A stretch of 64,000 nt of DNA from an uncultured Gammaproteobacteria bacterium. Lineage in GTDB: Bacteria > Patescibacteriota > Patescibacteriia > Magasanikbacterales > UBA922. The DNA is taken from NCBI GenBank assembly GCA_964597575.1, contig CAZQXB010000001.1, positions 594,511 to 658,510 on the forward strand, written 5' to 3'. Below are positions 2,505 to 18,710 of the stretch, piece by piece. The position numbers were made by a program, and so were the translations under genes. The number at the start of each line of letters is the position of its first letter. Positions within the stretch are counted from its first letter, which is position 1. The notes under the pieces were generated by a model, which was not told the origin of the DNA, did not search any database, and saw nothing but the letters and a program-made list of their open reading frames with translations.

Positions 2505-5144
2505 ATGAATCCTCATAATTTCACCCAAAAGTCCCAGGAAGCGATTCAGAGAGCTTCAGATATTGCTCATGAACATGGCCAGCCCCAAGTGGAGCCTCCA
2601 CACCTTTTCGCCTCCCTTCTTCAAGAAGAGGAGGGCGTCGTGATTTCCGTACTTAAAAAAATGAATGCGAACATTCCTGAACTCCGAAATGCGGTGAGTA
2701 GCATGATTCAGGGGATGCCCCGAATCCCAGGCCCTATGCCGGGCGGTATCGGGCAGATTCTGATGGGTCAGGCCATGATGTATATTTTGGAGCGAGCCGG
2801 GGAAGAATCCAAAAAAATGGGCGATGAATACATTAGTGTTGAACATTTATTGTTGGCATTTTTAGGAAATAAAAACCCTATTAGCAGCGCTCTTGGAAAT
2901 CAGGGAGTTCATTACGACGACGTCTTAAAAACATTAGTGACGGTACGTGGAAATCAACGGGTTGATTCAGCAAACCCTGAAAGTAAATATCAGGCCCTTG
3001 AAAAATACGGTAAGAATTTTACCGAACTCGCTCGTCGAGAAAAGTTGGATCCTGTCATTGGTCGTGATGACGAAATTCGTCGAGTCATGCAGGTTCTCAC
3101 ACGTCGCACCAAAAATAACCCGGTACTTATTGGTGAGCCTGGAGTTGGGAAAACCGCCATTATTGAAGGCTTAGCACAGCGCATAGTAAAGGGCGATGTC
3201 CCTGAGAGTTTAAAAGAAAAAGAAGTGGTTGGGCTTGATATTGGTTCTCTCGTGGCCGGAACAAAATTTCGCGGTGAATTTGAGGAACGTTTTAAAGCAG
3301 TTTTAAAAGAAGTGATTGAATCCGATGGGCGTATTATTTTGTTTATTGATGAGCTCCACACCATTGTCGGAGCAGGTGCAAGTGAAGGTGCGGTCGATGC
3401 CAGTAACATGTTAAAGCCCGCACTCGCCCGTGGCGAACTTCATACGGTTGGGGCAACTACGCTTAAGGAATATCGTGAGCATATTGAAAAAGATGCAGCG
3501 TTTGAGCGTCGATTTCAACCGGTTCTCGTGACCGAGCCTACCCCTGAAGACGCGATTGCTATTTTGCGAGGAATCAAAGAAAAATATGAAGTCCATCATG
3601 GGGTCCGAATTACTGACTCTGCGATTGTGGCAGCGGTTGAATTATCAAGCCGCTATATTACCGACCGATTTTTACCCGACAAAGCGATTGATTTGATTGA
3701 CGAAGCTACCTCAGCCCTTCGTATGGAAATTGAATCAATGCCAGACGATTTAGATAAAATGAAACGAAAGATGATCAAAATCGAAATTGAAATGAGCGCC
3801 CTTAAAAAGGAAAAAGACGCTGATGCGAAAGAACGTTTGGGAAAACTGAAAGAAGAGATAGAAAATCTCCGCGAGAAAAGCAATGAGCTTGAAATGCACT
3901 GGAAAAATGAAAAAGAAATTATTGGAAAAATTCGTGAACATAAAAAAAGCATTGATAAGCTAAAGCAGGAAGCTGAAATTGAAGAACGAAACGGTAACTT
4001 ACAAAAAGTAGCCGAAATTCGCTACGGCAGTATTCCTATGATTGAAGAGGCTATTCGAGAAGATGAAAAGAAACTGACCGATATTCAAAAAGGACGTTCT
4101 ATTTTGAAAGAAGAAATTACTGAGGAAGATATTGCAGCCGTAGTTTCGCGCTGGACTAAAATTCCCGTTTCCAAAATGCTTCAGGATGAAATGCGCAAAC
4201 TCGTTACAATGGAAGATGAGCTTCGAAAGCGTGTCGTTGGTCAAGATGAGTCTATTCGCGCGGTAGCAAACGCGATTCGTCGTTCACGGGCTGGTATTTC
4301 TGAAAAGAAACGTCCAATCGGATCCTTTATCTTTCTTGGTCCAACCGGAGTTGGAAAAACGGAACTGGCTCGTGCACTCGCAGATTTTCTTTTTAATGAT
4401 GAGGAAGCTCTGGTTCGGGTGGATATGAGTGAGTTTATGGAAAAACATGCGGTCAGTCGCATGATCGGCTCCCCTCCTGGGTATGTGGGCTACGATGATG
4501 GAGGGCAGTTAACCGAAAAGATTCGTCGTCGTCCATTCTCGGTCGTGTTATTCGATGAAATCGAAAAAGCACATCCAGATATTTTCAATGTCATGCTTCA
4601 AATTCTCGATGATGGTCATGTAACTGATGCCAAAGGCCGTAAAGTCAATTTTAAGAATACCGTCATTATTATGACGAGTAACGTGGGGTCAGACATGATT
4701 ATGCGCTTAGGAAAGCGCGGAGAATTTGGCTTTGGTGATAATTCCGAAAAAACGACGAGTGAGAAAAAAGAAGACGCGATGAAAACGAAAGTCATGGAGG
4801 CTCTCCGTGATCAGTTTCGCCCAGAGTTTTTGAACCGCGTCGATGAAATTATCGTTTTTCATCCCCTCACAAAAGAGAATCTTCGTATCATTGTGGATCT
4901 TCAACTTCTTCAAATCGCAGAGCGACTTCGTGAAAGAAAGCTCACTCTTATTGTGACTGATGCAGCGAAGGATTGGCTCGGTGAAAAAGGATATGACGCA
5001 GAACTGGGAGCCCGCCCGATGAAACGGACGCTCCAAACTGAGGTTCTCGACCCTCTCGCGATACAAATCATGGCCGGAGAAGTGGTAGAGGGTGCGACTA
5101 TTACGGTTGATGTAAAAAATGATAAGATTACGTTCGTTGTTTAA
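2505..5144 (+). CDS. clpB: ATP-dependent chaperone ClpB (two AAA+ modules plus coiled-coil M domain)
   Basis: [16 protein letters not shown]-domain. D1 has Walker A GEPGVGKT and Walker [10 protein letters not shown] long coiled-coil middle domain follows. D2 has GPTGVGKTE and [11 protein letters not shown]. The track ORF starts at an upstream GTG (2427); the ATG at 2505 fits ClpB N-termini. Confidence 0.9.
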
Positions 5145-5199: not shown

Positions 5200-6108
5200 T
5201 TATTTTAGGTGACCAGCTCGGGTCGTTTCTAATTCCTGAATTTCTTTGGTAAAGGCAGCAACACGATTGATAACTGGAACTTTAATAGGAAACTTCTCAA
5301 GTTCAGCATCAACGTTGTATTTTCCGATATCTGCATCAAGAAGCGTCTGGCGAATCGTCGCCTCATCGGTATTAAACTTTTCTTTTACGAGCTCAAGTAC
5401 TTCTGGATACTTTGCAATCTCTTCATTCCGAAGTTCACGCAATTCTGACACTGATTGCTGAAGTCCGCCAGCTAAATTCCCCTTCTCCTGGGCCGTGGCA
5501 ACGCGTTTTACTAACTTTCCATTCGTTACCTCGGAAACTTCCCCTTGATTTACCTCAACTATTTCGTCTCCTTTTGTTACCGCCACAACCCCTTCTCCGG
5601 TCATAATTTTTCCACCAGGGTGCATTTCAAAAGCGGTACCTTTCACCGTTGCGGTAAAGGTACCGTCGGTAACAACGTAGCTTCCGTTTGTATGTACACC
5701 ACTAACTTCGTGCCATGTACGACCACTCTCCAATCGGAGACGAATCGCATCTTCTTTGAGAGATTCAATGACCACTTTCGTGTTCATATCAAGAAGCACA
5801 ACCGAGCTTTCAAACATCTGAAGTGAGGCATTCCCGCCCATTTTGGTTTCAACCGTATCCCCTTCTTTCACAGCGGTAACTCCATCAACTAAAGTTCCAT
5901 TCACATAGACCTCAACCCCTAAATTGCGCGGCTCAACTTCCGCTGTGCGAATTGGCGCTGAAAAAAGCATACGGTACGCCACTACCCCGGCAACGGCAAG
6001 AGCGGCGATGATAAGCAGAACAACCGTAAGAACAATATACTTGGTCTTTGATCGTTTCGGCTCAGTGCTACCCATCTGAGTTGTCTGTACTGTTGCTGAA
6101 TTTTCCAT
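5200..6108 (-). CDS. Membrane-anchored protein with FecR-like beta domain
   Basis: 302 aa with an N-terminal TM helix (YIVLTVVLLIIAALAVAGVVAY). Its beta-rich central region resembles FecR-domain proteins (GTAFEMHPGG...GEGVVAV). Confidence 0.5.
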   Translation of the reverse strand: MENSATVQTTQMGSTEPKRSKTKYIVLTVVLLIIAALAVAGVVAYRMLFSAPIRTAEVEPRNLGVEVYVNGTLVDGVTAVKEGDTVETKMGGNASLQMFESSVVLLDMNTKVVIESLKEDAIRLRLESGRTWHEVSGVHTNGSYVVTDGTFTATVKGTAFEMHPGGKIMTGEGVVAVTKGDEIVEVNQGEVSEVTNGKLVKRVATAQEKGNLAGGLQQSVSELRELRNEEIAKYPEVLELVKEKFNTDEATIRQTLLDADIGKYNVDAELEKFPIKVPVINRVAAFTKEIQELETTRAGHLK

Positions 6109-6117
6109 AAATAAAGA

Positions 6118-6408
6118 TTATGTTTCTGGGAATAATTTTTTGTTGTTTTCGTCGTAGAGGTGAATGGCCAGAACCGGACAGGCTTCTGCTGCCATTTTTA
6201 TGGTTTCGTCATCCTCATAGGTGGAATTTTCTTTCACGACATATGCTAGGTTCTCATCATCCATTTGAAATGTCTTCGGTGCGACGAGGACACATGATCG
6301 CGCCCCAATACAGGCTGGTCGGTCGACAATCACCTTTCTGATTTTTCCTGTTGCTTTTGTACCGACTGACGGATTCTCAAATTGTGCTTCTGGTAGAGAT
6401 TCATTCAT
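6118..6408 (-). CDS. Small ferredoxin (single Fe-S cluster type)
   Basis: 96 aa with the Cys motifs DRPACIGARSC ... AAEACPV, typical of small [3Fe-4S]/[4Fe-4S] ferredoxins. Confidence 0.6.
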   Translation of the reverse strand: MNESLPEAQFENPSVGTKATGKIRKVIVDRPACIGARSCVLVAPKTFQMDDENLAYVVKENSTYEDDETIKMAAEACPVLAIHLYDENNKKLFPET

Positions 6409-6414
6409 AGTAGA

Positions 6415-7125
6415 TTAGTTATGTAAAGTTATTTCAGGAATGATGTTACACCCAACACTCGGTATGTGAATTGCTGCATCCGAGGATAAATTTTCTTTCG
6501 TTACCCAACTGTACTCATACCACGTCCCCTGCTCATCCCGACTAAATTCAGTCTGATTACCGAGGTCAGTTGCACCATAGTAGCAACGCATGACTTTCCA
6601 TGCATTTTTACCTGCTTCTGTTTGTTTCATGTCAATAAAGTATACGTCACCCCCGTATGCTGATGTTGCGATCGCGAGATTTATTCGAGGGTTTTCGACG
6701 TCTGGCCCACTCTCGTGCCAAATATCATGGACGGAATAGTTCCCTTTGAGTTCAATAAATTTATCCCAATGTTTTTTTTCTTCGTCGAGTTTAAGGACAC
6801 CTAAAAACGTCGTTTTTTCAAATGAACCACCATGTCCACCTACAAGGCCGTATGTGGTGAGCCCAACATGTTTTAATTGAATATACTGAGCAATAGTAAG
6901 ATCTTCCGGAAGAGTACCCATACCAAGGATTGCCTGACGCTCTTCGGTAATAATATAACCATCCTTATCGGTAAGATGTGCTGGTTTGTTAAGCTTTTCT
7001 TGACCAACACTATCTAAAATAAGAGGGCTCTGTTGGAGAAGAATGGCTTTCCATATAATAGTCCACAAAACAAAACATGCCAAGAATCCAAAAAAGAAAA
7101 ATTGTAGCTCGCGTGTTTTGTTCAT
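6415..7125 (-). CDS. Hypothetical membrane-anchored protein
   Basis: The ATG at 7125 gives MNKTRELQFFFFGFLACFVLWTIIW, a TM anchor followed by a ~200-aa globular region with no recognisable family. It sits inside the suf transcription unit. Confidence 0.5.
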   Translation of the reverse strand: MNKTRELQFFFFGFLACFVLWTIIWKAILLQQSPLILDSVGQEKLNKPAHLTDKDGYIITEERQAILGMGTLPEDLTIAQYIQLKHVGLTTYGLVGGHGGSFEKTTFLGVLKLDEEKKHWDKFIELKGNYSVHDIWHESGPDVENPRINLAIATSAYGGDVYFIDMKQTEAGKNAWKVMRCYYGATDLGNQTEFSRDEQGTWYEYSWVTKENLSSDAAIHIPSVGCNIIPEITLHN

Positions 7126-7126
7126 A

Positions 7127-7468
7127 CTACAAATCACCTAAAAAATTGTTCGCGGTCATAATATCTTCAGCAGAGAGACCGGTTCTCGTTGTCGTTTCAC
7201 GAGCGTCAGGATCTTCAAGTGGTTGCTGCATCAAAACCCGTTTTACTTCACTCACTGCTTCGTCGGGGGTTACATGATGAAGGAGTGTTTGGCCAACAAC
7301 GACATTTGGAGCGCTCGAACATGGGCCAACACATGGGCAAGGAGAAATATTAAGGTCATTTGGGAGAGCCCCTTGATTTTTTGCATCGACAAGAATTTGA
7401 GAGATGCGCTCTCCGCCAAACGTCTGGCACGATCTCCCATTACACACACGGACAGCAGGATGTTTCAT
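7127..7468 (-). CDS. Thioredoxin-like [2Fe-2S] ferredoxin family protein
   Basis: 113 aa with the Cys pattern VCNGRSCQ ... CPCVGPC, characteristic of the NuoE/thioredoxin-like ferredoxin family. Confidence 0.6.
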   Translation of the reverse strand: MKHPAVRVCNGRSCQTFGGERISQILVDAKNQGALPNDLNISPCPCVGPCSSAPNVVVGQTLLHHVTPDEAVSEVKRVLMQQPLEDPDARETTTRTGLSAEDIMTANNFLGDL

Positions 7469-7477
7469 AGAATTCTA

Positions 7478-7813
7478 TTATACACCAAGAACGACCCGAA
7501 GTTCAGGTGAAGGCTTCCAGGGGGGCTCAAATGTAACCGTGATATTCACTGTTTTAAATCCAAGCATCTTTAAGCTTGTTTCGATGTCTTCTTTGATCTG
7601 CTCGCCCGAAGGGCAAAGGGGTGTGGTGTAGGTGAGCAAAATATCAACCACTTCAGCACTTTTTATATCGATATTATAAATAAGACCAATCGTCCAAATA
7701 TCAACCCCAAGTTCGGGGTCAAAAACCGTTTCGAGCATTTCAATCACCTGCTCCTTTGAGGGAGCTTTTTTTGTACTAGGTATAGGAGCCATATCCGTGT
7801 GTATCAATATCAT
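7478..7813 (-). CDS. DUF59/MIP18-family Fe-S assembly protein (SufT-like)
   Basis: 111 aa with VFDPELGVDIWTIGLIY ... TTPLCPSGE, the DUF59 signature with conserved Cys. The start may instead be the internal ATG at 7792. Confidence 0.7.
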   Translation of the reverse strand: MILIHTDMAPIPSTKKAPSKEQVIEMLETVFDPELGVDIWTIGLIYNIDIKSAEVVDILLTYTTPLCPSGEQIKEDIETSLKMLGFKTVNITVTFEPPWKPSPELRVVLGV

Positions 7814-8504
7814 TGGCTAATTCAGGTCCAGCAGTTTTAACCATTTTGCCTTTTTTCAAAAGGTGAACGGTATCAGGCGTCACGTACTCTAAGATTCGGG
7901 TGTAGTGGGTGATGAGAAGAACTGCGGTATCTTTCGAACGGAAACGGGAAATTGCTTCCCCTACAGCCCTGAGACCATCTACATCAAGCCCAGAATCGGT
8001 TTCATCGAGGATAGCATACTTCGGGCTGAGCGTAAAAAGTTGGAGCATTTCAAGACGCTTTTTTTCTCCCCCGGAAAAACCCACATTGACCGAACGCGAG
8101 AGTGCCTCTTTTCCGAGCCCAAGTTTCTCTCCTTCGGTAATAAGAGTTCGGTGGAACGGAAGCGGGGCCACATGCTCGCCCGTGAGTGATTCTTTGGCGG
8201 TTCGTAAAAAATGGGAGATGCCTACACCATCAATTTCTGGTGGATATTGCATCGAAAGAAACAGCCCGCTCTTCGCTCGTTCATGCACCTTAGCGTTCGT
8301 GATCTCTTTTCCATCAATCGTAATCGATCCCCCGGTTATGGTATATTTTGGATGACCCATGAGGACGTTGGCAAAGGTTGATTTCCCTGAACCATTTGGG
8401 CCCATGAGGACATGTACCTCCCCTGGTGAAATAGTAAGATTGACTCCATCCAGAATGGGAGTGCTACCTGAAGAAACACTGAGATTTGAAATGTGGAGAG
8501 ACAT
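7776..8504 (-). CDS. sufC: Fe-S cluster assembly ATPase SufC
   Basis: MSLHISNLSV... then GPNGSGKST (Walker A), the ABC signature LSGGEKKR and Walker B ILDETDSGLD. The ATG at 8504 lies immediately after the sufU stop. Confidence 0.9.
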   Translation of the reverse strand: MSLHISNLSVSSGSTPILDGVNLTISPGEVHVLMGPNGSGKSTFANVLMGHPKYTITGGSITIDGKEITNAKVHERAKSGLFLSMQYPPEIDGVGISHFLRTAKESLTGEHVAPLPFHRTLITEGEKLGLGKEALSRSVNVGFSGGEKKRLEMLQLFTLSPKYAILDETDSGLDVDGLRAVGEAISRFRSKDTAVLLITHYTRILEYVTPDTVHLLKKGKMVKTAGPELANDIDTHGYGSYT

Positions 8505-8506
8505 AT

Positions 8507-8875
8507 TTATAGAGTGCGAGTTGCTTTTTGAATAGCACGGAGGGTAAGAGATGCGCAATTCTCGCGAGTATACACTATGTCAAAGCCGAACCATTCGTCA
8601 ATGTCTCGCTTGGTGTAGCCAGTAATTTCCTGAACAGTTCTTCCCTTCACAGCATCGGTAGCTAAAGATGCTCCAGCCAGGGAAATTGCACAGCCGACTC
8701 CGGTAAACTTTGCATCGACAATAATTCCCTCACGAATAAGAAGTTCCACGATAACTTCATCCCCACAACTCGAGTTAACTTCCCTTGCTGTGTGCGTGTG
8801 CCCCAAAAGAGACCCTTTATTATGTGGATTATGGTAGAGATCAAGAATGATGTCGCGGTATAAATCCATGCTCAT
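8507..8875 (-). CDS. sufU: SufU/IscU-like sulfur-transfer scaffold protein
   Basis: MSMDLYRDIILDLYHNPHNKG... with conserved Cys in CGDEV and GVGCAIS, typical of NifU-N/SufU. Confidence 0.8.
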   Translation of the reverse strand: MSMDLYRDIILDLYHNPHNKGSLLGHTHTAREVNSSCGDEVIVELLIREGIIVDAKFTGVGCAISLAGASLATDAVKGRTVQEITGYTKRDIDEWFGFDIVYTRENCASLTLRAIQKATRTL

Positions 8876-8876
8876 A

Positions 8877-10079
8877 CTACTGTTTGAAAATGTTTTGTGC
8901 GTCGAGCAGCGCCTGCACCGTGCGGTCAATGTCTTTTTTACTAGAGTAGGCGGCGAACGAAATACGTCCTGTTCCAGGGAGCTTCAGTAAACTCATAAGT
9001 GGCATAGTACAGTGCGACCCCCCACGAATGGCAATGTGTCTTTCTCCAAGAATTTCTGCAATGTCATGAGGGTGAATGCCGTCTACCGTAAAGGAAATAA
9101 CCCCAACCCTTTCCTCTGTTGTGCCTGGTCCAACAATAGTAAGCCCTGGAATACCCTTCAAGCAGGTCAGAGCATAGGTAACAAGCTCCTTTTCATGAGT
9201 CATGAACTGATCAAAACCAACAGAGGTAAGCCATTCCACGGCCCTCCCAAGCCCAATAGCTCCACTTATATTTGGTGTTCCCGCTTCAAATTTCCACGGA
9301 ACCTCGTTCCAGGTTGCCGATGCGTACGTTACTTCGCGAACCATATCGCCACCAAAAAGAAGCGGATCAAGAATCTCAAGTCTTTCTTTTTTTCCATACA
9401 ATATGCCGATACCCGTTGGACCATACATTTTGTGCCCAGAAGCAACGAGAAAATCACAATCAATCGCCTTCACATCGAGAGGAATGTGGGCAATGGATTG
9501 AGCCGCGTCAATAATAGTTACAGCATTCACTTTTTTTGCTTCAGAAACTATTTTTTCTATAGGGAAGATGCAGCCAAGCGTATTTGATACATGCATGACC
9601 GAAACGATTTTGGTTGTTTTATCAATTTTTGAAAGTGAATTTTCGTCAAGAAGAAAATCAGGGGTTAATTCCAAAAATCGAAGTTCAAATCCGTATACTT
9701 TACTCATTTCCTGCCAAGGCACAATGTTCGCATGATGCTCAGCACGAGTGAGCACGACACTATCCCCTTTCCTCAGTCGTTTTCCTAAGGATTGTACAAG
9801 GAGGTTCAAGCTTGAAGTAGTGCCACCGGTAAAGACCACCTCCTCTTTTGTTGCTCCAATAAAACGAGCGATGATTTCGCGAGCATGCTCGTATTGAAGC
9901 GTAGCCCGCGCAGCATCTGGGTACAACCCTCGGTGCACATTTGCGCGATACTCCTCTTCAAATTCGACTAGCGTATCAATTACACAAGCTGGCATGAGTG
10001 TGGTTGCTGCATTATCAAGATAGGCGTATACTTTATCGCGTTTCAGACGAGGGAATTGTGAACGAATATTTTTTTTCAT
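8877..10079 (-). CDS. sufS: Cysteine desulfurase SufS (group II)
   Basis: MKKNIRSQFPRLKRDKVYAYLDNAATT..., HHANIVPW, SGHKMYGPTGIGILYGK and RGGSHC. The upstream in-frame ATG at 10175 would add an atypical 32-aa extension, so 10079 is preferred. Confidence 0.9.
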   Translation of the reverse strand: MKKNIRSQFPRLKRDKVYAYLDNAATTLMPACVIDTLVEFEEEYRANVHRGLYPDAARATLQYEHAREIIARFIGATKEEVVFTGGTTSSLNLLVQSLGKRLRKGDSVVLTRAEHHANIVPWQEMSKVYGFELRFLELTPDFLLDENSLSKIDKTTKIVSVMHVSNTLGCIFPIEKIVSEAKKVNAVTIIDAAQSIAHIPLDVKAIDCDFLVASGHKMYGPTGIGILYGKKERLEILDPLLFGGDMVREVTYASATWNEVPWKFEAGTPNISGAIGLGRAVEWLTSVGFDQFMTHEKELVTYALTCLKGIPGLTIVGPGTTEERVGVISFTVDGIHPHDIAEILGERHIAIRGGSHCTMPLMSLLKLPGTGRISFAAYSSKKDIDRTVQALLDAQNIFKQ

Positions 10080-10229
10080 AGTTAGAGTACAGGTTGGGCA
10101 ATTTCTGAAAGACAGTAGTCCTTTTACCGGGTGCTGTGGTAAATGGTGAAAAGGTTTGCTGAAACTGTTCCCCATTGGTTTTTCCTAGATCAAGGTTAGC
10201 CCCAGCAAAAGGGTGGTTTGAAAAAACGT

Positions 10230-10355
10230 TTACCCCTGACTTCCACAGAATGATCGTGTTTCAAATAATTTTGTAGGATCTGGAAAGAGAAAAACGCAAC
10301 CGACAGTAACAAAATCACCAGAAAAATTCCAATTGTTTTTTTGATTCTTACTCAT
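10230..10355 (-). CDS. Small ORF (41 aa) translationally coupled to sufD
   Basis: Its ATG overlaps the sufD TGA (ATGA). Manual translation gives MSKNQKNNWNFSGDFVTVGCVFLFPDPTKLFETRSFCGSQG. There is no family match and it is below the 60-aa track cutoff. Confidence 0.25.
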   Translation of the reverse strand: MSKNQKNNWNFSGDFVTVGCVFLFPDPTKLFETRSFCGSQG

Positions 10356-11344
10356 GGGTAAAATTGAGTAATGCATAGTGATGGGTCAATTTGTGGGGGC
10401 AATGCTGGGGCTATGTGTGCTTCAAGCGTAAGAGATGTTGCTTTATTTCGGTCTAAGCCTCGAGAACAAAGATAGAACAATTTTTCATCAGACAAGCGAG
10501 TTGTTGTCACCGCATGAGAACACTGCACATCGTTTTCACGAATATCTAAATCGGGTACGGTTTGACTTTTCGCGTGAGGGGAAATAAGAAGCGTATGCAT
10601 TTCTTCACGTGCCTTCACTTGGCGGGCATGGGGAAGTATCGTTGTCTGTGCACGACCAATGTGACGCGCGTGCCCATCTAAAAGAACTCGGATATTGGCG
10701 TGCGATACCGTATGTGCGGCTTCATGAATAGTGTGATAAAAGGTGTCAAAAAGTTGACCGCCCTTTCCAAGGATAGCGCTTTTTACGATAGCCTCAGCTC
10801 CTTCCCCTACGAGGCAAGTTATTGTTTCGCTCGTGCATTCGTTTTCAGCTTGAGCTGTATCAAACCATGTTAATTTTGCATTTTTCTCTACCGTTGCAAC
10901 GCGTCGAATAGCCAGATGGCGAGGCGCATATTCTGATGATTCGTGCATGTAGCTTACCGTTGCGCCTTCGCCGATTTTGAGAATTAAAGAAAAAATGAGG
11001 AGGTCTTGCCCATGAGTATGCTCAATAATCGTTACGTTCGCATGAGGGGCAACAGAGAGAGTACACTGTAACACACTTGATTCAGCTAAACCTTCGGCAG
11101 TGAAATGAAACGGTTCCGATTCATTTTTTTTATCCAAAAAATGCGTATATGCACTTGTTGGCTTTATGCCAAAGAAGGGGTGTTTTTCGTCAAGGATAGT
11201 ATAGCCTCCCACTTCCTCCAGCTGCACCCCTTGTGCATCAACAACATCACCAGAACCTGGTGTTCGGTGATACAAATCAAAAGAAGTAAGGTCGTGCACC
11301 ATACCCGGCCCGTAGGAGAGAATTTTTGATCGTTCTTTGGGCAT
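10352..11344 (-). CDS. sufD: Fe-S cluster assembly protein SufD (SufB/SufD family, short form)
   Basis: 330 aa with the beta-helix C-terminal region and the LFYLCSRGL motif. It is too short for SufB, and a separate 468-aa sufB lies upstream. Confidence 0.8.
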   Translation of the reverse strand: MPKERSKILSYGPGMVHDLTSFDLYHRTPGSGDVVDAQGVQLEEVGGYTILDEKHPFFGIKPTSAYTHFLDKKNESEPFHFTAEGLAESSVLQCTLSVAPHANVTIIEHTHGQDLLIFSLILKIGEGATVSYMHESSEYAPRHLAIRRVATVEKNAKLTWFDTAQAENECTSETITCLVGEGAEAIVKSAILGKGGQLFDTFYHTIHEAAHTVSHANIRVLLDGHARHIGRAQTTILPHARQVKAREEMHTLLISPHAKSQTVPDLDIRENDVQCSHAVTTTRLSDEKLFYLCSRGLDRNKATSLTLEAHIAPALPPQIDPSLCITQFYP

Positions 11345-11359
11345 AAATTATCTTGTAAC

Positions 11360-11388
11360 ATTGTAGCTTATTTTAGGTAAAATTTCAA
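11360..11388 (-). promoter_or_regulatory. Sigma70-like promoter TTGAAA-17-TACAAT driving sufD and downstream suf genes
   Basis: On the minus strand, TTGAAA is the rc of 11383-11388 and TACAAT is the rc of 11360-11365, with exactly 17 nt between them. It sits about 15 nt upstream of the sufD ATG, giving a short leader. Confidence 0.5.
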
Positions 11389-11414
11389 GTTAAATTCTCA
11401 ATAGAGATGATAAT

Positions 11415-11440
11415 TAAAGAAGCCCTTTTTAGAGGGCTCC
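11415..11440 (-). terminator. Rho-independent terminator after the 1141-aa gene (agccct-ttttag-agggct, then U-tract on minus strand)
   Basis: A hairpin 24 nt past the stop at 11464, followed on the minus strand by TTCTTTAATT. Confidence 0.6.
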
Positions 11441-11463
11441 TTTAATGGGGTTAGTGCCTCTGG

Positions 11464-14400
11464 TTAAATACCGGTGTACGGAACAGAAGCCGAATATGCG
11501 GAACACGAATTTGTGGCTTGGTTGTAGGCGCAAAGACGAAGATAAATGGTACCGGTGGGAAAATTAAGCTCACCGCGATTAATGTAGACTTCGTTGTTTC
11601 CAGCAGCGCGCGCATAGGCTATTACACCTGACCCATACAGAGTAGGGTTGTTTTGCAGAGAGAAGAGAACTCGAAATTCTTGGTTTCCTGTCCAGTATGC
11701 GTATGCAGATGAGTTGAGAACTGTTAACGCATAGCTGTCCCCACTGCTTACCGGAGGGGTTGTTGGATTGGGTGCTGGCGAAGGGCTTGGAGTTGGTCCT
11801 GGTGTAGGAGATGGTGGGGGTGGCGGAATGGGTGCTGGAGAGCCTCCGCGACCAACCCACGAACCTCCGAATTCACAGCCTGTCCACCAGCACGGTGTAC
11901 CAAGAGCAAAATTTTCAAGAGCCGTAAATTTCGGAGCTTCGCTGTGTGATTGATTTTGCGAAAGGAGTGCTCCGAAATTTCCGTACCGAGTTTGAGGGGT
12001 GACGTCAACGAAATGAACAAATGTTTTTCCACCACGCTCTCTCCAGCCATTCAGGTATTGGGTGTAGAGGGCTCCCATTCGTGGATCGTTGTTTGCATCT
12101 CGAAAAAGAGCTTCGACCGTTGCATTATTTTCGTTTGCTCCATACGCAATAAGATGCTGCCCACCTTCGTATGCAATGAGATCGATTCCTGGGTACGATT
12201 GTCGAAGAAATGTATTATCATCGCTCATTTCCTGAAAGGCCTGAGGTAAATCTATCGACTGCAATTGATCGAAGATTTGATTGAGTGTCATGCTTTGTGT
12301 GGCCGATGAACCACTTAGTCTGTTTCCAAAGTATGGTGCTGTGGCAACCGCATCAATATTCTGATACGCGTTTCTCCAGGAGAGCAGGTTGCCTGTTCTC
12401 CAGGTGTTTCCCGTAAACGAGCCCATCACTCGCACTACGCGACCGTTTACACCAAATACGTCACGGAAAATTTGTCCAACTTGAACCGATCGTTCACTAA
12501 ATTGCCGCATTTCACCCATACCACAAGCTTGGATGTACCGGAGTGGCCACGGATGACCCTCACAATAGACACCGTTTCCTGGGTTTGCATCCTGATCACA
12601 CTCCGCTTGAAGATCAGGATTATTCTGACACCCTCGTGCCGCTAAAATTTGCTGCTGGAGGATGTATGGGTACGCACCATTCCACGATTCGTTCGAATAC
12701 TCAACAAAGATGCGACTGTTTGAGTTAATGGCACCGCGAATACGGGAAGCAATATCCCGCACAAGGGCGTCCGATGCATTTACCGGAATGTTAATCCACA
12801 AATCAGCCTGAAGGGTATTTGAGAACTCAGCAAGAATTTCTGGTGGGGTCCGAACCCAGTGAGCATCAGTGACGCGTGTAAGGTCACTCACGTTTACCAC
12901 ATTTTCAATACCTGCTTCATTTATCCCCCATTCTTGCATAAAACGCACAACGCTTGTTGAGCGATTATTACGAAGGTATGTCGGGTGAAACAGTTGTGGG
13001 TTTGGGGTGTCCGCAAAAATACGGCACGTATTTGATCCTCCGCACTGGCTGTTTGTTGTGCAGTACTGTGTTTGATCATTTGAGCACGATCCGCCTGGAG
13101 GGTATACGCGAATGTTTCTAATATAGTTATTTGGGTTCGTTGAACTAATTTCTAGCATGACAGTCGTTTCAAAGGCGGAGCGAGTTACATCGATCACATC
13201 ACGCCCTGGCCTCGACAAATCAGCATTTCGTGTACCTCCGGAATATACTATGACCCCTTCACCGTCATAGAGAACGGTATATCTACCTGTCGGATAAAAA
13301 GTTGAAGGGTTTGTTGAGCCTGCAACATTCGTTACGAGTGCGGTACGGATAATATTTGTTCCCGGAACATTATTTGGAACAGATCGTACCCATCCGTTAC
13401 TATCAAGATTGACTGCCGGACCACAGTTCCAGCATGCCTCGACAGTTCCGTTTCCTATAATACCAGAAGCCCATGGTCGTGATGATTTAAACAAATCTAC
13501 AAAAACCCAGTTCGCCCCGAAGTCAATAAGGGAATGAGTATTTGTTCCGATCGCGGATCGATAATTCGCCAAACTTCCAGATGGTGGAGGGCTCACTGGT
13601 GCTGGTGGAGGTACTGGAGCTGGAGGTGGCGGAGGTGTCGTTGGAGGAGTAGCAGGGGGTGCTGGTGGAGCAACAGGAGGTGTCGCCGGTGGGGGTGGTG
13701 GCGGTGTTCCGGGTGGAGCTGGAGGTGGCGGAGGTGTCGTTGGAGGAGTAGCAGGGGGTGCTGGTGGAGCAACAGGAGGTGTCGCCGGTGGGGTCGTTCC
13801 CCCTGCTGCGTTTACGGTAATTGAGGTCGGTCCTGAAGTCGTCTCTTGGCCGGAATTATCCCGAGCCCGGACAGATAGCGAGTGAGCTCCACGCGTTGGA
13901 TTCACCCAATTAAATACAAACGGCGAAATGGTGTCACGACGCAAAAGATTGGTGCCATCAAAAAACTCGACGTACGATATAGACCCGTTTGCATCGCTGG
14001 CTGTCGCCTCAAGCCGAACTGTTGTCGGTAGTGTAAAAACAGAATTTGCAATAGGGCTTGTAAGTGAAACTCTCGGTGCACCAGGGGTGGGTAACGGAAC
14101 AGGGGCGGGCGGAGGAAGAGGGACCGTCGATCCTGGAGATGGTGCGGGTGGAGTTGGAGGGGTAATCGGGCGAGAACTTGTTGCGTCCGCAAATACCCGT
14201 GCCAACGGAATTGTCGCTACATGATCAAGGCGAAATTGGTAAACGTTAGTCACCTCCTCGGCCGAGGTAATATACCGCTTTGCTAAAGATGAAGCAGTTT
14301 GACCGCTCGTAGAAACGGATTCTAAAGCGTACACTTTGGGATCGTTTTGATATTTAAAAAGAAGATTTGATGGGAGCGTATCAACCGTTGTAATGGCGGG

Positions 14401-14883
14401 CAACACCGTATATTTTTGAAGCACGACCGGGGTAACATCCTCAATTTGATCAAAAGAAAAGCCTAAAACATTCAGAAATGTATTTTCAGATTCAATAGGA
14501 TGTATTGAAGAGTTACCAAGAACTATGTAGACCTTTGGGTCTGTCACGGTTTTAAGTAAGGATCCGTTTGGATATACTCTTCGATGACCCCAAGGAAGAA
14601 AGGATAACTCGTGATTAGGTATGCGAGCGAGTGTTTGAGCATTTGTTATCCGAACGTCACTCCATGATGCAAAATGAGAAAAATAAACCTGCGAACTTTT
14701 AATTGGGCGTTTTTTACAGTCTTCTGAGATGTAATAGACTGCTGGGTTGTTAGGAATTTTATATGGTTGCAAAATGGTCAGCGGGCAATTTGTTGAGGTT
14801 TGGGATATTGCCGGGGCAACAAATACCACTCCGAGAGATGCAAATAGGGCCAAACCCAAAGAGAGAAGATGAGAACGACGCAT
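11464..14883 (-). CDS. Large secreted multidomain protein: signal peptide, Ig-like domain, Pro/Thr-rich linkers, putative clan GH-A glycoside-hydrolase-like core, C-terminal beta domain
   Basis: The ATG at 14883 gives MRRSHLLSLGLALFASLGVVFVAPAISQ, a signal peptide. PTPPAP linkers flank an Ig-like segment (SVRARDNSGQETTSGPTSITV). The core carries VEYSNESWNG (resembling the GH-A acid/base xExxNEx motif) and LIAYEGGQH (a nucleophile-like motif). The final PT-rich linker is followed by a beta-rich tail. Confidence 0.75.
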   Translation of the reverse strand: MRRSHLLSLGLALFASLGVVFVAPAISQTSTNCPLTILQPYKIPNNPAVYYISEDCKKRPIKSSQVYFSHFASWSDVRITNAQTLARIPNHELSFLPWGHRRVYPNGSLLKTVTDPKVYIVLGNSSIHPIESENTFLNVLGFSFDQIEDVTPVVLQKYTVLPAITTVDTLPSNLLFKYQNDPKVYALESVSTSGQTASSLAKRYITSAEEVTNVYQFRLDHVATIPLARVFADATSSRPITPPTPPAPSPGSTVPLPPPAPVPLPTPGAPRVSLTSPIANSVFTLPTTVRLEATASDANGSISYVEFFDGTNLLRRDTISPFVFNWVNPTRGAHSLSVRARDNSGQETTSGPTSITVNAAGGTTPPATPPVAPPAPPATPPTTPPPPPAPPGTPPPPPPATPPVAPPAPPATPPTTPPPPPAPVPPPAPVSPPPSGSLANYRSAIGTNTHSLIDFGANWVFVDLFKSSRPWASGIIGNGTVEACWNCGPAVNLDSNGWVRSVPNNVPGTNIIRTALVTNVAGSTNPSTFYPTGRYTVLYDGEGVIVYSGGTRNADLSRPGRDVIDVTRSAFETTVMLEISSTNPNNYIRNIRVYPPGGSCSNDQTQYCTTNSQCGGSNTCRIFADTPNPQLFHPTYLRNNRSTSVVRFMQEWGINEAGIENVVNVSDLTRVTDAHWVRTPPEILAEFSNTLQADLWINIPVNASDALVRDIASRIRGAINSNSRIFVEYSNESWNGAYPYILQQQILAARGCQNNPDLQAECDQDANPGNGVYCEGHPWPLRYIQACGMGEMRQFSERSVQVGQIFRDVFGVNGRVVRVMGSFTGNTWRTGNLLSWRNAYQNIDAVATAPYFGNRLSGSSATQSMTLNQIFDQLQSIDLPQAFQEMSDDNTFLRQSYPGIDLIAYEGGQHLIAYGANENNATVEALFRDANNDPRMGALYTQYLNGWRERGGKTFVHFVDVTPQTRYGNFGALLSQNQSHSEAPKFTALENFALGTPCWWTGCEFGGSWVGRGGSPAPIPPPPPSPTPGPTPSPSPAPNPTTPPVSSGDSYALTVLNSSAYAYWTGNQEFRVLFSLQNNPTLYGSGVIAYARAAGNNEVYINRGELNFPTGTIYLRLCAYNQATNSCSAYSASVPYTGI
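13619..13792. repeat. Tandem direct repeat, 2 x 99 bp, encoding a duplicated 33-aa Pro-rich linker
   Basis: gctggaggtggcggaggtgtcgttggaggagtagcagggggtgctggtggagcaacaggaggtgtcgccggtgg occurs at 13619 and again at 13718. The protein repeat is ATPPVAPPAPPATPPTTPPPPPAP x2. Confidence 0.8.
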
Positions 14884-14967
14884 AGACAAAAAAAGATAAT
14901 GCCCCTATGACAAAGGGTACCAAATTAAAGAACTATTCGCAATTTTTTATCCTCTTTGTCGCCTTCT

Positions 14968-16374
14968 CTACCCCACCGCTCCTTCCATCTCAAGTTCAAT
15001 AAGTTTGTTTAATTCAAGTGCATACTCGAGAGGGAGCGCCTTTACAATAGGTTCGATGAATCCTGCAACCACCATTTGCATGGCTCGCTCGGCGGTAAGC
15101 CCTCTGCTTTGCAAATAGAAAATCTCCTCTTCCCCAATTTTTCCCACCTTAGCCTCATGAGCAATATCAACATCACTTTGTTCGATATTCATAACAGGAT
15201 GAGTTGTTGAAATTGAAACCTCATCAAGAAGGAGCGCATCGCAAGCGACCGAAACAGTAGAGTCTGGTGCCTTCGCAGTTACCTTAACGAGCCCTCGGTA
15301 ACTTGAAATCCCTCCGCCAAGAGAAATAGATTTGGATTGAATCGTAGATTTTGTTCTCGGTGCAGCGTGAATTACTTTAGCTCCAGTATCTTGATGCTGA
15401 CCTGGTCCAGCAAAGACGACCCCCAAAGAGTCGGATGTTGCTCCTTCGCCACGCAAAATCGAGGCTGGATACAGCATGGTCACTCCAGAACCCATATTTC
15501 CATTAATCCACTCGACCACACCATTTTTATCAACTAACGCCCGCTTTGTATTTAAGTTGTAGGTATTTTTACTCCAATTTTCAATAGAGAAGTACCCGGC
15601 ACGAGCATTTTCATGCACAAATATTTCGACACACCCGGCATGCAAAGAACTTTTTGCATATCGTGGCGCACTGCAGCCTTCTATGTACTGCACCTCAGCC
15701 CCTTCATCGACAATAATAAGCGTATGTTCAAACTGACCACCCCGTTCTGCATTCATACGAAAGTACGCCTGAAGCGGCAGGTCAACCTTCACACCTTTGG
15801 GGACATAGATGAACGTCCCCCCACTCCATACCGCTGCATGGAGCATAACAAATTTGTGATCATTAATAGGAACGCACTGTGTCATGAAGTATTTCTGAAC
15901 CATCTCAGGATATTTTTGGACCGCTGTATCCATGTTTTCAAAAATAACCCCTTTATCAGCTAAGTTTTTTTGAATACTATGGTAGACAATATCACTGTCA
16001 TACTGAGCCCCTACCCCACCAAGCATAGTCTTTTCGGCTTCAGGAATACCGAGTCGGTCAAATGTTTTCTTGATATCTTCTGGTACCTCATCCCAATTTG
16101 CAGCCTCCTTTGTGTCTGGTCGAACAAAGTACACAATCTCATCGAGATGAAGCCCAGAAAGATCAGGGCCCCAAGTTGGCAGAGGTGCTTTCAGATACAG
16201 TGCAAGCGCAGCGAGCCGTTTTTCAAGCATCCAGGCTGGTTCATTTTTCTGAGCAGAAATTTCGCGTACGACTTCCTCGGTAATTCCAGGCTTGGCAATA
16301 TATTTTGAACGATCAACATTAGCCTCTTCGTAGAGAGACCGGCTCGGAGGTTGAATTGCCGGTCGGTTTGACAT
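14968..16374 (-). CDS. sufB: Fe-S cluster assembly protein SufB
   Basis: 468 aa, full-length SufB with the FYLQSRGL motif and conserved Cys/His region. It is separated from sufD by the 1141-aa gene. Confidence 0.9.
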   Translation of the reverse strand: MSNRPAIQPPSRSLYEEANVDRSKYIAKPGITEEVVREISAQKNEPAWMLEKRLAALALYLKAPLPTWGPDLSGLHLDEIVYFVRPDTKEAANWDEVPEDIKKTFDRLGIPEAEKTMLGGVGAQYDSDIVYHSIQKNLADKGVIFENMDTAVQKYPEMVQKYFMTQCVPINDHKFVMLHAAVWSGGTFIYVPKGVKVDLPLQAYFRMNAERGGQFEHTLIIVDEGAEVQYIEGCSAPRYAKSSLHAGCVEIFVHENARAGYFSIENWSKNTYNLNTKRALVDKNGVVEWINGNMGSGVTMLYPASILRGEGATSDSLGVVFAGPGQHQDTGAKVIHAAPRTKSTIQSKSISLGGGISSYRGLVKVTAKAPDSTVSVACDALLLDEVSISTTHPVMNIEQSDVDIAHEAKVGKIGEEEIFYLQSRGLTAERAMQMVVAGFIEPIVKALPLEYALELNKLIELEMEGAVG

Positions 16375-16496: not shown

Positions 16497-17399
16497 TTAC
16501 GGGAAGACAGAACGAATATATTCAATCGACTTGAACGGCTCTTCTGTATTTGTGATTTCATGCTGGCATGCATCAATAATTTCTATTTGTCCGTTGGTAA
16601 GCTTAAAGGTGAAAACAACTTTTCCACTTTGCTGAGAACAACCGTATGTCGGCGAAAGTAGACCAACATTTGGTGCGCTACGCTGACGAATTGAGGCATA
16701 ACTGGTCTGATTTACCTCACGGGAAATGACAGACATTTTCTCTGGACTTAACGTCGTTTTTAATTGCCCGTTTACATAATATTTTCCATTTGAGGTGAAT
16801 CGAAATTCACAGGGGTTTGACGAGCAATATAAATTACTTGAGTTTGAAGCTGTGTGATGTTTAAAATAAACCACATCATATTCAGGTACCACAATCAAGT
16901 TATTTGTCGGCCCTGGCTGCTGCACAATCGGTTGTGTCGTCGGTCCTGATTGTGGGGAAACAGTAATGCTTCCACTGCCACTTGTTCCACCACTCGACTG
17001 AGAACCAGGTGCAATTGTTGGTTGAGGCTGATTCGTAACAGGTTGAGCCGGAGAAAGGCCACTCGGTTGAGGGCGTACTATGGTCGGCGTTGGCTGATTC
17101 GTAACAGGTTGAGCCGGAGAAAGGCCACTTCCCCTAGCTGGGGTTGGTGAAGCCGCTGGCGGAGTAACGCTTACGGGTGTTGGATTTGTTGGAGGTACTG
17201 GGGCTCTCGGGGTTGGAGAAGCCGGCTCAGGAACTGGCGTAGGAGAGACCTCAACAGCATCAGGGGTTTTAGCAACTTTTTCTTCGGTTGTTTTTTCACC
17301 TTTACTAGCACTAAACCAAACCACGAACAAAAGAATGAAAAGAACGACAACGAAAGCTCCTCTTTTTTGATTTTGAGTAAGTGAGTCTAGCTTGGCCAT
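16497..17399 (-). CDS. Membrane-anchored Pro/Thr-rich protein with Cys-containing C-terminal domain
   Basis: 300 aa with an N-terminal TM (AFVVVLFILLFVVWF), a PT-rich stalk and an internal 22-aa tandem repeat (SGLSPAQPVTNQP...). The C-terminal globular part has 4 Cys. Confidence 0.5.
   Translation of the reverse strand: MAKLDSLTQNQKRGAFVVVLFILLFVVWFSASKGEKTTEEKVAKTPDAVEVSPTPVPEPASPTPRAPVPPTNPTPVSVTPPAASPTPARGSGLSPAQPVTNQPTPTIVRPQPSGLSPAQPVTNQPQPTIAPGSQSSGGTSGSGSITVSPQSGPTTQPIVQQPGPTNNLIVVPEYDVVYFKHHTASNSSNLYCSSNPCEFRFTSNGKYYVNGQLKTTLSPEKMSVISREVNQTSYASIRQRSAPNVGLLSPTYGCSQQSGKVVFTFKLTNGQIEIIDACQHEITNTEEPFKSIEYIRSVFP
17026..17129. repeat. Tandem repeat, 2 copies, 66-bp period (ggctgattcgtaacaggttgagccggagaaaggccact)
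   Basis: The 38-nt block is seen at 17026 and 17092, encoding the repeated SGLSPAQPVTNQP peptide. Confidence 0.7.
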
Positions 17400-17425: not shown

Positions 17426-18628
17426 TTAGGAAACGGAACCCATTTTTCGAACGGCAGAAACAACCTCATCAATTACTTTTTTTACATAGGCCATGTCGTC
17501 ACGGGTCGTTTCTTGTCCTAAAGAAAATCGGATACTCTGTCCCGCCTCTTCCTTACTCATTCCCGCGGCCAAGAGTACATGCGACGCTTCATCTTTATCT
17601 GTGGCACAGGCAGACCCACTGGCGACCGCGATCCCCTTAGCATCCAAGTAGACAATAAGTGCCTCAGCTTCAGCTCCAAAAAATGTAACGTGTAAGAAGT
17701 GCGGCAACTGCATCTTTGTATCCTTTGGCTTATTGATTCGAATATGCGAAATCTTCTTTGTGAGAAACTTTTCCAAGTCATCACGGAGGTGCTCAACTCT
17801 CGCAGATTCCTTGTTCAGATTTTTCCTCACCCGCTGAAGGGCCTGACTGAACCCGATGAGGTTGGGAACATTTTCCGTTCCGCTTCTGAGACCAAATTCT
17901 TGCCCTCCTCCAGGAATAAGAGGATAGAGCGGAACACCCCGACGCTTATATAATACACCAATTCCCTTTGGTCCATATATTTTTGAACCATTCAGCGTTA
18001 ATAAGTCAACATGAAGTCGTTCCACCGAAAGGTCGAGGAACTGTCCGGCTTGGCATGCATCGGTATGGAAAATAGGATACATTCCAGATGTACTTTTGCG
18101 CAAACGAAGGATGCCTCGTCCAATGTCAGAAATAGGTTGGATAGTGCCGAGCTCGTTATTCGCATACATAACAGACACAAGCACGGTTTGAGGTGAAATC
18201 GCTTCAAGCACGTCCACACTTCGGACAATACCCTCATTTGTTACAGGCACAATAGTTACGTCGGCCCCTTCTTTTTCCGCCAAACGAACTGCTTCCAAAA
18301 CGGCATGATGCTCAATCGCGGTTGTCACTATATGTGGTTTCTTTACGCCATTTTTCTTAGCCTCACGCACAACCCCCAAAATTGCCATAACACAGGATTC
18401 CGTGCCACCACTCGTAAAGAGGACCGTGTCCGGTTGTGCCTCGAGGATCGTTGCTACCAGAGCCCGTGCTTCATCAATTTTTTCACGAACAAAAGTAGCC
18501 TCTTTATAAAGAGCCGAAGGGTTCGCCTGATGAATAGTAAAAAACGAACGCATCGACAATAAAACCCCAGGGTCGATCGGGGTTGCTGCCGCGTGATCAA
18601 GGTTTATGGAAGGAGTTTTTCTCTTCAT
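17426..18628 (-). CDS. Cysteine desulfurase, IscS/NifS-like (group I)
   Basis: 400 aa with the PLP-lysine region SGHKIYGPKGIGVLYKRRG. This is a second desulfurase, distinct from SufS. Confidence 0.85.
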   Translation of the reverse strand: MKRKTPSINLDHAAATPIDPGVLLSMRSFFTIHQANPSALYKEATFVREKIDEARALVATILEAQPDTVLFTSGGTESCVMAILGVVREAKKNGVKKPHIVTTAIEHHAVLEAVRLAEKEGADVTIVPVTNEGIVRSVDVLEAISPQTVLVSVMYANNELGTIQPISDIGRGILRLRKSTSGMYPIFHTDACQAGQFLDLSVERLHVDLLTLNGSKIYGPKGIGVLYKRRGVPLYPLIPGGGQEFGLRSGTENVPNLIGFSQALQRVRKNLNKESARVEHLRDDLEKFLTKKISHIRINKPKDTKMQLPHFLHVTFFGAEAEALIVYLDAKGIAVASGSACATDKDEASHVLLAAGMSKEEAGQSIRFSLGQETTRDDMAYVKKVIDEVVSAVRKMGSVS

Positions 18629-18710
18629 AGAAATTTGGCTCTATGTTGCGTTTTTTATCCCTCTATAGTAGACTATATCTTATCAAGAAAATGCCATTTT
18701 GTCAACCGCT

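Follow-up and report, generated by a model that had tools for sequence, protein, structure and literature searches.

A SUF operon probably divided by insertion of a gene for a large secreted protein in a likely member of the Patescibacteria

How does an operon that serves the biogenesis of iron-sulfur (Fe-S) clusters come to be cut in two by an unrelated gene, and how would the genes beyond the cut still be transcribed? The question is raised by a 64-kb stretch of DNA (contig CAZQXB010000001.1, positions 594,511 to 658,510; hereafter the window), where sufB and sufD of the sulfur mobilization (SUF) system are 3.6 kb apart. The distance between them holds an unrelated gene for a large secreted protein, called BIG here, a conserved hairpin and a conserved promoter block, and the SUF core genes were not found as one uninterrupted operon in the window. 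We consider it probable (roughly 0.78) that an ancestral SUF operon was split by the insertion of BIG together with its terminator, that a new promoter came to precede sufD, and that a second insert, BIG2, later decayed. The minus-strand order given in the initial annotation, from sufB through the large secreted gene, a terminator, a promoter and sufD to the ferredoxins, was verified by the list of open reading frames (ORFs) and by profile searches. The central part, in the direction of transcription, is as follows.

14968-16374, minus strand: sufB, 468 aa; full-length match to TIGR01980 (680 bits, cutoff 346).
14884-14967, minus strand: spacer between sufB and BIG; no terminator-like fold, weak promoter-like TTGCGA-17-TACCCT.
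11464-14883, minus strand: BIG, secreted multidomain protein of 1139 aa; ORF 11464-14889, likely start ATG 14883; Sec-type signal peptide.
11413-11446, minus strand: terminator-like hairpin and U-tract after BIG, by folding; these coordinates give the extended stem, the core is 11419-11440.
11360-11388, minus strand: predicted sufD promoter TTGAAA-17-TACAAT, 15 nt from the sufD ATG.
10352-11344, minus strand: sufD-like gene, 330 aa; PF01458, E = 1.9e-43; TIGR01981, 153 bits, below the cutoff of 222.
10080-10355, minus strand: BIG2 pseudogene relic, including a 41-aa ORF (10230-10355); the start codon and N-terminal helix remain, joined to the final ~68 codons, frameshifted.
8877-10079, minus strand: sufS, 400 aa from ATG 10079 (ORF 8877-10175); TIGR01979, 499 bits, cutoff 475.
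8507-8875, minus strand: sufU-like gene, 122 aa (ORF 8507-8929); PF01592, E = 1.3e-22; TIGR01994, 83.8 bits, below the cutoff of 92.5.
7776-8504, minus strand: sufC, 242 aa (ORF 7776-8558); TIGR01978, 293 bits, cutoff 213.
7478-7792, minus strand: sufT (DUF59), 104 aa (ORF 7478-7813); PF01883, E = 6e-15; below the NCBIfam equivalog cutoff.

The sufD-like gene stands at the expected position and is kept in relatives, and its SUFBD core is clear though the TIGR01981 score is below the cutoff. A SufS desulfurase with a SufU-type partner was found, the former above and the latter below the equivalog cutoff; SufA, SufE and SufR were not found in the cluster. True starts were assigned at 10079 for sufS, 8875 for sufU, 8504 for sufC, 7792 for sufT and 7125 for a membrane protein further downstream, based on gene calls in the independent Logan contig L091 and on protein lengths in relatives. 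For sufS, the 400-aa form is called both in L091 and in relatives. The TIGR01979 match begins at residue 35 of the long sufS ORF, and the first 32 codons of that ORF overlap the tail of the BIG2 relic, which is read in another frame.

A synteny comparison in relatives, proposed in the initial annotation, showed that sufB and sufD are contiguous in an insert-free relative and in outgroups. The insert-free relative, L002, has the order csd-like, sufB, sufD, sufS, sufU, sufC, sufT. Its sufB ends at 6446 and its sufD starts at 6448, 1 nt apart, and its sufD overlaps sufS. BIG, BIG2 and gene X, a third non-SUF gene that lies upstream of sufB in the window, are all absent. The gene order of L005 (SufB 65% identical) is that of L002, and sufB and sufD are also adjacent in L012 (SufB 57%). 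L004 has sufB-sufS-sufU-sufC, and a Peregrinibacteria metagenome-assembled genome (MAG) has sufC-sufB-sufD-sufS-sufU. A SufB/D-like gene directly 3' of sufB was present in about 75 of the 80 GTDB loci fetched. In the 43 loci scored with a SufD query, the gap between the SufB and SufD high-scoring segment pairs was at most 872 nt, compared to ~4.1 kb in the window by coordinate arithmetic. One element of the earlier interpretation has to be dropped, namely that sufC was displaced by the event. With or without an insert, sufC follows sufU in L002, L004, L005, L082, L083 and L085; sufB-sufD-sufS-sufU-sufC-sufT is the normal order of the lineage and is unrelated to the insertion.

A full-length search with BIG itself recovered only ten proteins. 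The two closest, in L082 and L083, are encoded exactly between sufB and sufD, and in L085, which was found by a SufD search, BIG likewise lies between these genes. The cores of the SUF-embedded orthologues are 76-82% identical, the domain architecture is unchanged in L082, L083 and L085, and the orthologues are about equidistant from one another. Other homologues are encoded outside SUF clusters, with core identities of 66% (L086, adjoining a tRNA gene), 55% (L087) and 52% (L084). Equidistant orthologues, together with a host-like codon usage in the core and N-terminal domain of BIG, are consistent with one old insertion followed by vertical descent. An arrangement shared by relatives in which BIG had no history of its own had been named at the outset as the finding that would speak against an insertion; the relatives do share the arrangement, yet the distribution of BIG is independent of it.

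Downstream of BIG, a hairpin of -19.3 kcal/mol (z = -3.69 against shuffles) is followed by UUUAAUU. A terminator at 11415-11440 had been called after the large gene; folding supports it, and the three relatives have equivalents. A stable hairpin with a U-tract follows BIG in all four BIG-bearing loci, with differing sequences (L082, -21.0 kcal/mol, z = -3.7; L083, -15.6 kcal/mol, z = -4.2; L085, -24.3 kcal/mol, z = -6.0). With a GC-rich stem, a U-tract and a position 3' of the stop codon, it is a predicted intrinsic terminator.

Between this hairpin and sufD lies a block of 31 nt (CTTGAAATTTTnnnnnAAATAAGCTAnnnT) with 26 invariant columns across the four BIG-bearing loci, in a spacer that is otherwise unalignable. 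The block contains TTGAAA, a 17-nt spacer (conserved portion AAATAAGC) and TAYWMT, and the positions and spacing of the hexamers are invariant in the four loci. The promoter TTGAAA-17-TACAAT that had been read at 11360-11388 is thus present in the window and conserved in four of four BIG-bearing loci. Each of these loci has a single copy of a 25-nt pattern from the block, 87 other loci have no copy, and its single exact occurrence in the window compares to 0.02 expected. Given the hexamers, the 17-nt spacer and the signs of selection, we regard it as a predicted sigma-70-type promoter. Its -10 element ends 9-15 nt before the sufD ATG in the four loci, which would leave the sufD mRNA with next to no leader. 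The block was also considered as a repeated regulatory element and rejected as such, with one exact copy in the window and one further match that has three mismatches and lies inside a gene. Insertion of the large gene into an ancestral operon, with a promoter now serving the downstream genes, had been offered as one explanation of the locus. It is supported by the contiguity in insert-free relatives, by BIG homologues elsewhere, and by the terminator and promoter kept at all four loci.

The other explanation offered, co-regulation of the secreted protein with sufB, did not prove to be a conserved feature. In L083, three genes, a terminator and a promoter with an extended -10 lie between sufB and BIG, and in L082 a good promoter, TTGACC-18-TATACT, precedes BIG. 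In the window, no terminator-like structure was detected in the sufB-BIG spacer (fold z = 0.00), making read-through from sufB into BIG plausible as a prediction, nor in the spacer between X and sufB (z = 0.18). A MAFFT alignment of the DNA upstream of BIG from three loci (window, L082, L083) contained no conserved block. By eye, TTGCGA-17-TACCCT of the window matches the L082 promoter in position, which is a weak suggestion of a counterpart. Of the three additional genes of L083 (4463-6024), one is a DUF2204 gene, one a membrane ORF of 123 aa on the opposite strand and one an ORF of 106 aa, which indicates that the sufB-sufD junction keeps accepting genes.

In three relatives a second junction, between sufD and sufS, is occupied by BIG2, which has 796 aa in L082 and 821 aa in L085, and is split into 706 + 77 aa in L083. 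Members of this family were located as follows.

L082, 13270-15660: BIG2.
L085, 2624-5089: BIG2.
L083, 10893-13388: BIG2, the split copy.
L088, 10001-12328: BIG2 family member.

BIG2 has an N-terminal transmembrane (TM) helix, Gly-rich GGxGG repeats with many invariant glycines and a C-terminus that contains Cys. The BIG2 start and the sufD stop overlap, and 0-3 nt lie between the BIG2 stop and sufS. In the window, the spacer between sufD and sufS is only 275 bp long. The 41-aa ORF that had been listed between sufD and sufS lies in this spacer; it is not a gene but part of a frameshifted BIG2 relic. It has the same ATGA overlap with the sufD stop as BIG2 of L083, and it begins with MSKNQK (MSKKQK in L083). 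The three frames of the spacer carry WNFSG, KRFFKPPFCWG and GANLDLGKTNGEQFQQTFSPF, which are colinear with the terminal part of BIG2, WSFSG...KRFFRLPLCCGANLDPEKANGKPFPQTYSPF. When the 77-aa fragment of L083 was searched by tblastn against the whole window, the best three matches all fell within 10088-10265, in three frames (E = 1.7e-6, 0.008 and 0.26). Local DNA alignment of the spacer to the last 150 nt of L083 BIG2 scored 107, against a shuffle null of 20.6 ± 2.2. Colinear and frameshifted similarity of this kind indicates that the window lineage once had BIG2 and lost ~2.2 kb of it. The BIG2 family is very small, with 7 proteins among 5.8 billion clusters. Its only homologue from outside the clade on a long contig (Burkholderiales-labelled) has rubrerythrin, CCG-domain and DUF3501 genes to one side of it, and AhpC-type peroxiredoxin and CMD genes to the other. 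Nothing was matched by BIG2 in Pfam, NCBIfam and PDB sequence searches, and its AlphaFold2 model was poor (predicted local distance difference test, pLDDT, 53).

The cluster also reaches upstream past sufB, to gene X and a csd-like gene, and downstream past sufT. The outer features are the following.

18677-18705, minus strand: candidate csd promoter TTGACA-17-TAAGAT, 5' of the csd-like gene; 10/12 consensus matches, TG before the -10.
17426-18628, minus strand: csd-like gene for a second cysteine desulfurase, 400 aa; Aminotran_5, PF00266, E = 2.9e-64.
16497-17399, minus strand: gene X, membrane-anchored product; no Pfam match; a non-SUF insert in the slot between the csd-like gene and sufB.
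7127-7468, minus strand: thioredoxin-like [2Fe-2S] ferredoxin; PF01257, E = 4.4e-7.
6415-7125, minus strand: membrane protein, 236 aa (ORF 6415-7137); no Pfam or NCBIfam match.
6118-6408, minus strand: 4Fe-4S single-cluster ferredoxin; PF13370, E = 2.8e-15.
5200-6108, minus strand: FecR-domain protein, PF04773, E = 7.4e-8; last co-directional gene before the convergent clpB.

The product of X has an N-terminal hydrophobic helix or TM anchor and a Pro/Thr-rich linker, and its C-terminal domain is conserved and contains Cys. The slot is filled by orthologues of 317 aa in L082 and of 568 aa, with four Big_7 domains, in L083, and L002 has no X. Neither X nor the 236-aa membrane protein matched anything when searched against Pfam, NCBIfam and PDB sequences. 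The csd-like orthologues of L002, L082 and L083 are 53-55% identical and hold the same position; TTGACA-17-TAnnnT occurs at the same place 5' of csd in L082 and L083, where it may act as a promoter. Downstream, the 236-aa membrane protein is found in L085 (32% identity) and not in L083, the 4Fe-4S ferredoxin is 85-94% identical to those of L083 and L085, and in both the FecR-domain gene is kept 3' of the ferredoxin.

Taken together, the following history is proposed, its direction and order of events being the most parsimonious ones. The ancestral operon would have been sufB-sufD-sufS-sufU-sufC-sufT, with the close packing that L002 has retained. Non-SUF genes for extracytoplasmic proteins would have entered it in the ancestor that the window organism shares with the three BIG-bearing relatives. 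BIG would have come to lie between sufB and sufD as a unit complete in itself, with its own intrinsic terminator. Because that terminator would block transcription from upstream, the downstream genes would be served by the internal sigma-70-type promoter 9-15 nt before the sufD start codon, giving a sufD mRNA with a very short leader or none. Two transcription units are predicted today. The first would run from the csd promoter through the csd-like gene, X and sufB, then into BIG by read-through and/or from its own weak promoter, and would end at the BIG terminator. The second would run from the sufD promoter through sufD, the BIG2 relic, sufS, sufU, sufC, sufT, the ferredoxins and the FecR-domain gene. 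Assembly of the SufBC2D scaffold would then draw on the products of two transcripts. BIG2 would have been a second insert, translationally coupled between sufD and sufS, of which a deletion of ~2.2 kb in the window lineage left the 275-bp relic.

Several observations weigh against this history. The codon usage and the GC content at third codon positions of BIG are host-like (core z = 0.1 and -0.9), without a compositional mark of foreign origin; this fits an old event and adds no support. No mobile-element signature flanks BIG. L002 is the only insert-free relative between 80% and 89% SufB identity, and its database label is probably wrong; with a single such relative, the polarity of the event depends on parsimony across outgroups that lie further away. 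The terminator scan did not list the BIG hairpin, though folding clearly supports a hairpin. Promoter-like sites are frequent, with 23 in the region against 20.1 ± 4.3 by chance in shuffled sequence; a lone consensus match therefore means little, and it is by its conservation in relatives that the sufD promoter stands out from chance. The two-unit model is built from sequence signals, and all statements on transcription made here are predictions from them.

Two further observations concern the BIG region itself. A raised GC content at 13000-14500 is due to the Pro/Thr linker (GC 0.67). A target-site duplication was considered and rejected, the longest direct repeat common to both BIG-flanking spacers being 10 nt (TTCTTTAATT), which the best of 200 shuffles equalled or exceeded.

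Which organism carries this locus was judged from its SufB relatives and from other features of the window. The nearest SufB in a one-genome-per-species GTDB collection, at 80% identity, was that of L002, labelled as an uncultured gammaproteobacterium. Further matches came from a Candidatus Magasanikiibacteriota MAG (72%), a bacterium (70%) and two MAGs labelled as archaeal (65% and 57%). Magasanikiibacteriota are part of the Patescibacteria group. A bacterial host is indicated by sigma-70-like promoters and intrinsic terminators in the window, and by its clpB and WecG/TagA-type transferase. The host is likely a member of the Patescibacteria, and the gammaproteobacterial label of L002 is probably wrong. 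The BIG-bearing relatives L082, L083 and L085 span 89-92% SufB identity to the window (L082 89%, L083 92%). A metagenome scan with SufD as query returned a single locus, so the sampling of this clade is sparse. Our literature search on SUF gene order in the Candidate Phyla Radiation (CPR)/Patescibacteria found nothing specific.

Some features of the relatives are recorded here in their own right. Within the clade, SufB is 89-92% identical, far above SufD (53-60%), SufS (63-73%) and SufC (66-72%). The SufD of L002 (6448-7065) has 205 aa, compared to 317-331 aa in the window clade. L002 also has an ORF 5' of its csd-like gene (2749-3198) that, judged from sequence, looks like an Rrf2/IscR-type regulator, and the window has no counterpart. 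No other suf gene was seen within ≤10 kb upstream and ~4 kb downstream of sufB in L003 (10001-11371; the Magasanikiibacteriota MAG, SufB 72%) or in L006 (10001-11395; a Woesearchaeota-labelled MAG, SufB 57%), and both sufB genes seem to be orphans.

The nature of the inserted protein bears on how its position should be understood. The large gene had been described as encoding a secreted protein of 1141 aa. Secretion is supported by a typical Sec signal peptide (MRRSHLLSLGLALFASLGVVFVAPAISQ), and the likely start at ATG 14883 shortens the product to 1139 aa. In order, BIG consists of the signal peptide, an N-terminal domain of ~200 aa, a Big_7 domain, a Pro/Thr linker, a core resembling glycoside hydrolases (GHs), a second linker and a C-terminal domain of ~90 aa. 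The mapped parts are these.

13870-14076, minus strand: Big_7 immunoglobulin-like (Ig) domain of BIG, aa 272-340; PF17957, E = 2.9e-15.
13615-13793: perfect tandem duplication of 99 bp, 1.8 copies, in the Pro/Thr linker of BIG; Tandem Repeats Finder, 100% matches, score 358.
11848-13578, minus strand: catalytic-type core of BIG, aa 438-1014; beta-sandwich and (beta/alpha)8 barrel, similar to clan GH-A.

PDB sequence matches were confined to the Ig domain and came from Ig modules of chitodextrinase and of a GH9 enzyme. Outside Big_7, including the core and the N- and C-terminal domains, nothing was matched in Pfam or NCBIfam with E values up to 1, nor among PDB sequences. The core thus did not fall into a named CAZy or Pfam GH family. 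When used alone as a query, it found at least 1480 proteins across many taxa without a Pfam domain on the core. Some of them also carry CBM9, fn3, SLH or dockerin modules as fusions, and the family members P0011-P0130 are named only 'sugar-binding protein' or 'hypothetical' in their sources. In an alignment of 64 sequences, the motifs EYSNE...W-N and YEGGQH were both invariant. In these sequences N304/E305 and E479 (core numbering) are invariant or nearly so and follow predicted strands, which makes them candidates for the Asn-Glu (acid/base) and the Glu (nucleophile) that clan GH-A has at the ends of strands 4 and 7. The AlphaFold model of the core was of high quality (pLDDT 91.4, predicted template modelling score 0.92), and in this model the core has the (beta/alpha)8 barrel of the clan GH-A fold. 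BIG may thus be a secreted glycoside hydrolase of the retaining type, from a family that has no name; this activity is putative. Compared to retaining GHs of clan GH-A (GH51 arabinofuranosidase 1pz2, GH39 xylosidase 1w91, GH79, GH30, GH5), the BIG core is only 8-15% identical to any solved structure, and BIG additionally carries the N- and C-terminal domains of ~200 and ~90 aa without a family match. The N-terminal domain is ~55% identical to domains of other very large proteins. BIG is kept under strong constraint and has no evident biochemical link to Fe-S assembly.

Could X, BIG and BIG2 instead be accessory components whose expression is held to Fe-S biogenesis by selection, for example as a surface module that draws substrates from a host? 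The position of BIG was kept while SufD diverged to 53-60%, and the BIG core is more conserved than SufD, SufS and SufC. X and BIG2 are packed too tightly to have signals of their own, and the Burkholderiales homologue of BIG2 sits in a redox-stress neighbourhood. However, BIG has its own conserved terminator, and promoter-like elements precede it in L082 and L083. Its homologues also occur away from SUF genes, and L002 runs the same SUF genes without any of the three inserts. BIG2 was dispensable, as it is deleted in the window and split in L083; no part in Fe-S assembly is known for a glycoside-hydrolase fold; and gene order at such distances can persist by inertia. We hold such a recruitment to be unlikely. 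Its stronger form, in which the three genes are a conserved cell-surface module of small-genome, probably episymbiotic bacteria with expression deliberately coupled to Fe-S biogenesis, and BIG2 is a rare family linked to redox or Fe-S stress, seems less probable still.

It is likewise very doubtful that the split arrangement is ancestral and that the contiguous genes of L002 result from secondary deletion of BIG, X and BIG2. Only one insert-free relative is known within 80% SufB identity, and deletions do happen in this cluster, as the BIG2 relic demonstrates. Nevertheless, L002 holds no relic: its sufB and sufD are 1 nt apart and its sufD and sufS overlap. In L005 (65%), L012 (57%) and about 70 other genomes sufD directly follows sufB, and relatives of BIG at 52-66% identity are found outside SUF clusters. 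Three clean deletions in L002 would be required, and an earlier insertion regardless.

A chimeric assembly or binning error that joined the large gene to the SUF genes is extremely improbable: the perfect 99-bp repeat in BIG, which looks like a recent expansion, and the fact that the short-read contigs L001 and L091 both end inside BIG would fit one, but the sufB-BIG junction (L001) and the run from BIG through sufD, the 41-aa ORF, sufS, sufU and sufC to sufT (L091) are reproduced in these independent Logan contigs (SRR13355620; each seen in three samples), so that the arrangement is not an assembly artefact, and the same order is found in three other assemblies from different projects.

Elsewhere in the window, an AdoCbl-II (cobalamin) riboswitch was detected at 44506-44605 on the minus strand (42 bits, gathering threshold 36.5), just 5' of an 838-aa ORF (41918-44434).

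If the insertion history is correct, the locus is a natural example of an essential multi-subunit operon surviving a cut, with the stages visible: a terminator that the insert brought or kept, a promoter just upstream of the first downstream gene that was fixed and then strongly conserved, and a second insert that was later purged, with a relic left behind. It would also mean that transcription of sufB need not be tied to that of sufC and sufD, in a lineage whose regulators are probably few, as far as transcription can be read from sequence. For annotation, the 41-aa ORF should be treated as a pseudogene, sufS as starting at 10079, and sufC after sufU as normal in this group. The BIG core draws attention to a large family of at least 1480 glycoside-hydrolase-like proteins for which there is no Pfam model. 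The understanding of Fe-S biogenesis is unchanged by these findings, and the split cluster is a well-documented but ordinary case of operon remodelling, of modest general interest.

Known SUF operons include sufABCDSE of Escherichia coli and sufCDSUB of Bacillus, and the actinobacterial operon is sufR-sufBDCSU-sufT. Like bacterial SUF operons, the window encodes SufB, SufC, a SufD-like protein, the type II desulfurase SufS with a SufU-type partner and a DUF59/SufT protein, on one strand and in one neighbourhood. Unlike them, it has the order sufB-sufD-sufS-sufU-sufC-sufT, broken up by non-SUF genes and by a predicted terminator and internal promoter, with a second cysteine-desulfurase-like gene upstream and no SufA, SufE or SufR in the cluster.

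Operon death by insertion was described by Price, Arkin and Alm (2006, PLoS Genet, PMC1480536), with ptr inserted into recCBD as an example, and insertions within operons were found to be rarer than additions at their ends. The window resembles these cases in that an unrelated gene lies inside a conserved operon, the flanking genes are still near and on the same strand, and the insert is newly adjacent to the upstream gene. It differs from them in that a multi-subunit scaffold is divided, SufB being separated from SufC and SufD, and in that up to six extra genes occur at three junctions in the relatives. Here, moreover, the predicted repair promoter and the predicted terminator of the insert are both visibly conserved in four genomes, and one insert has been caught as a decaying relic.

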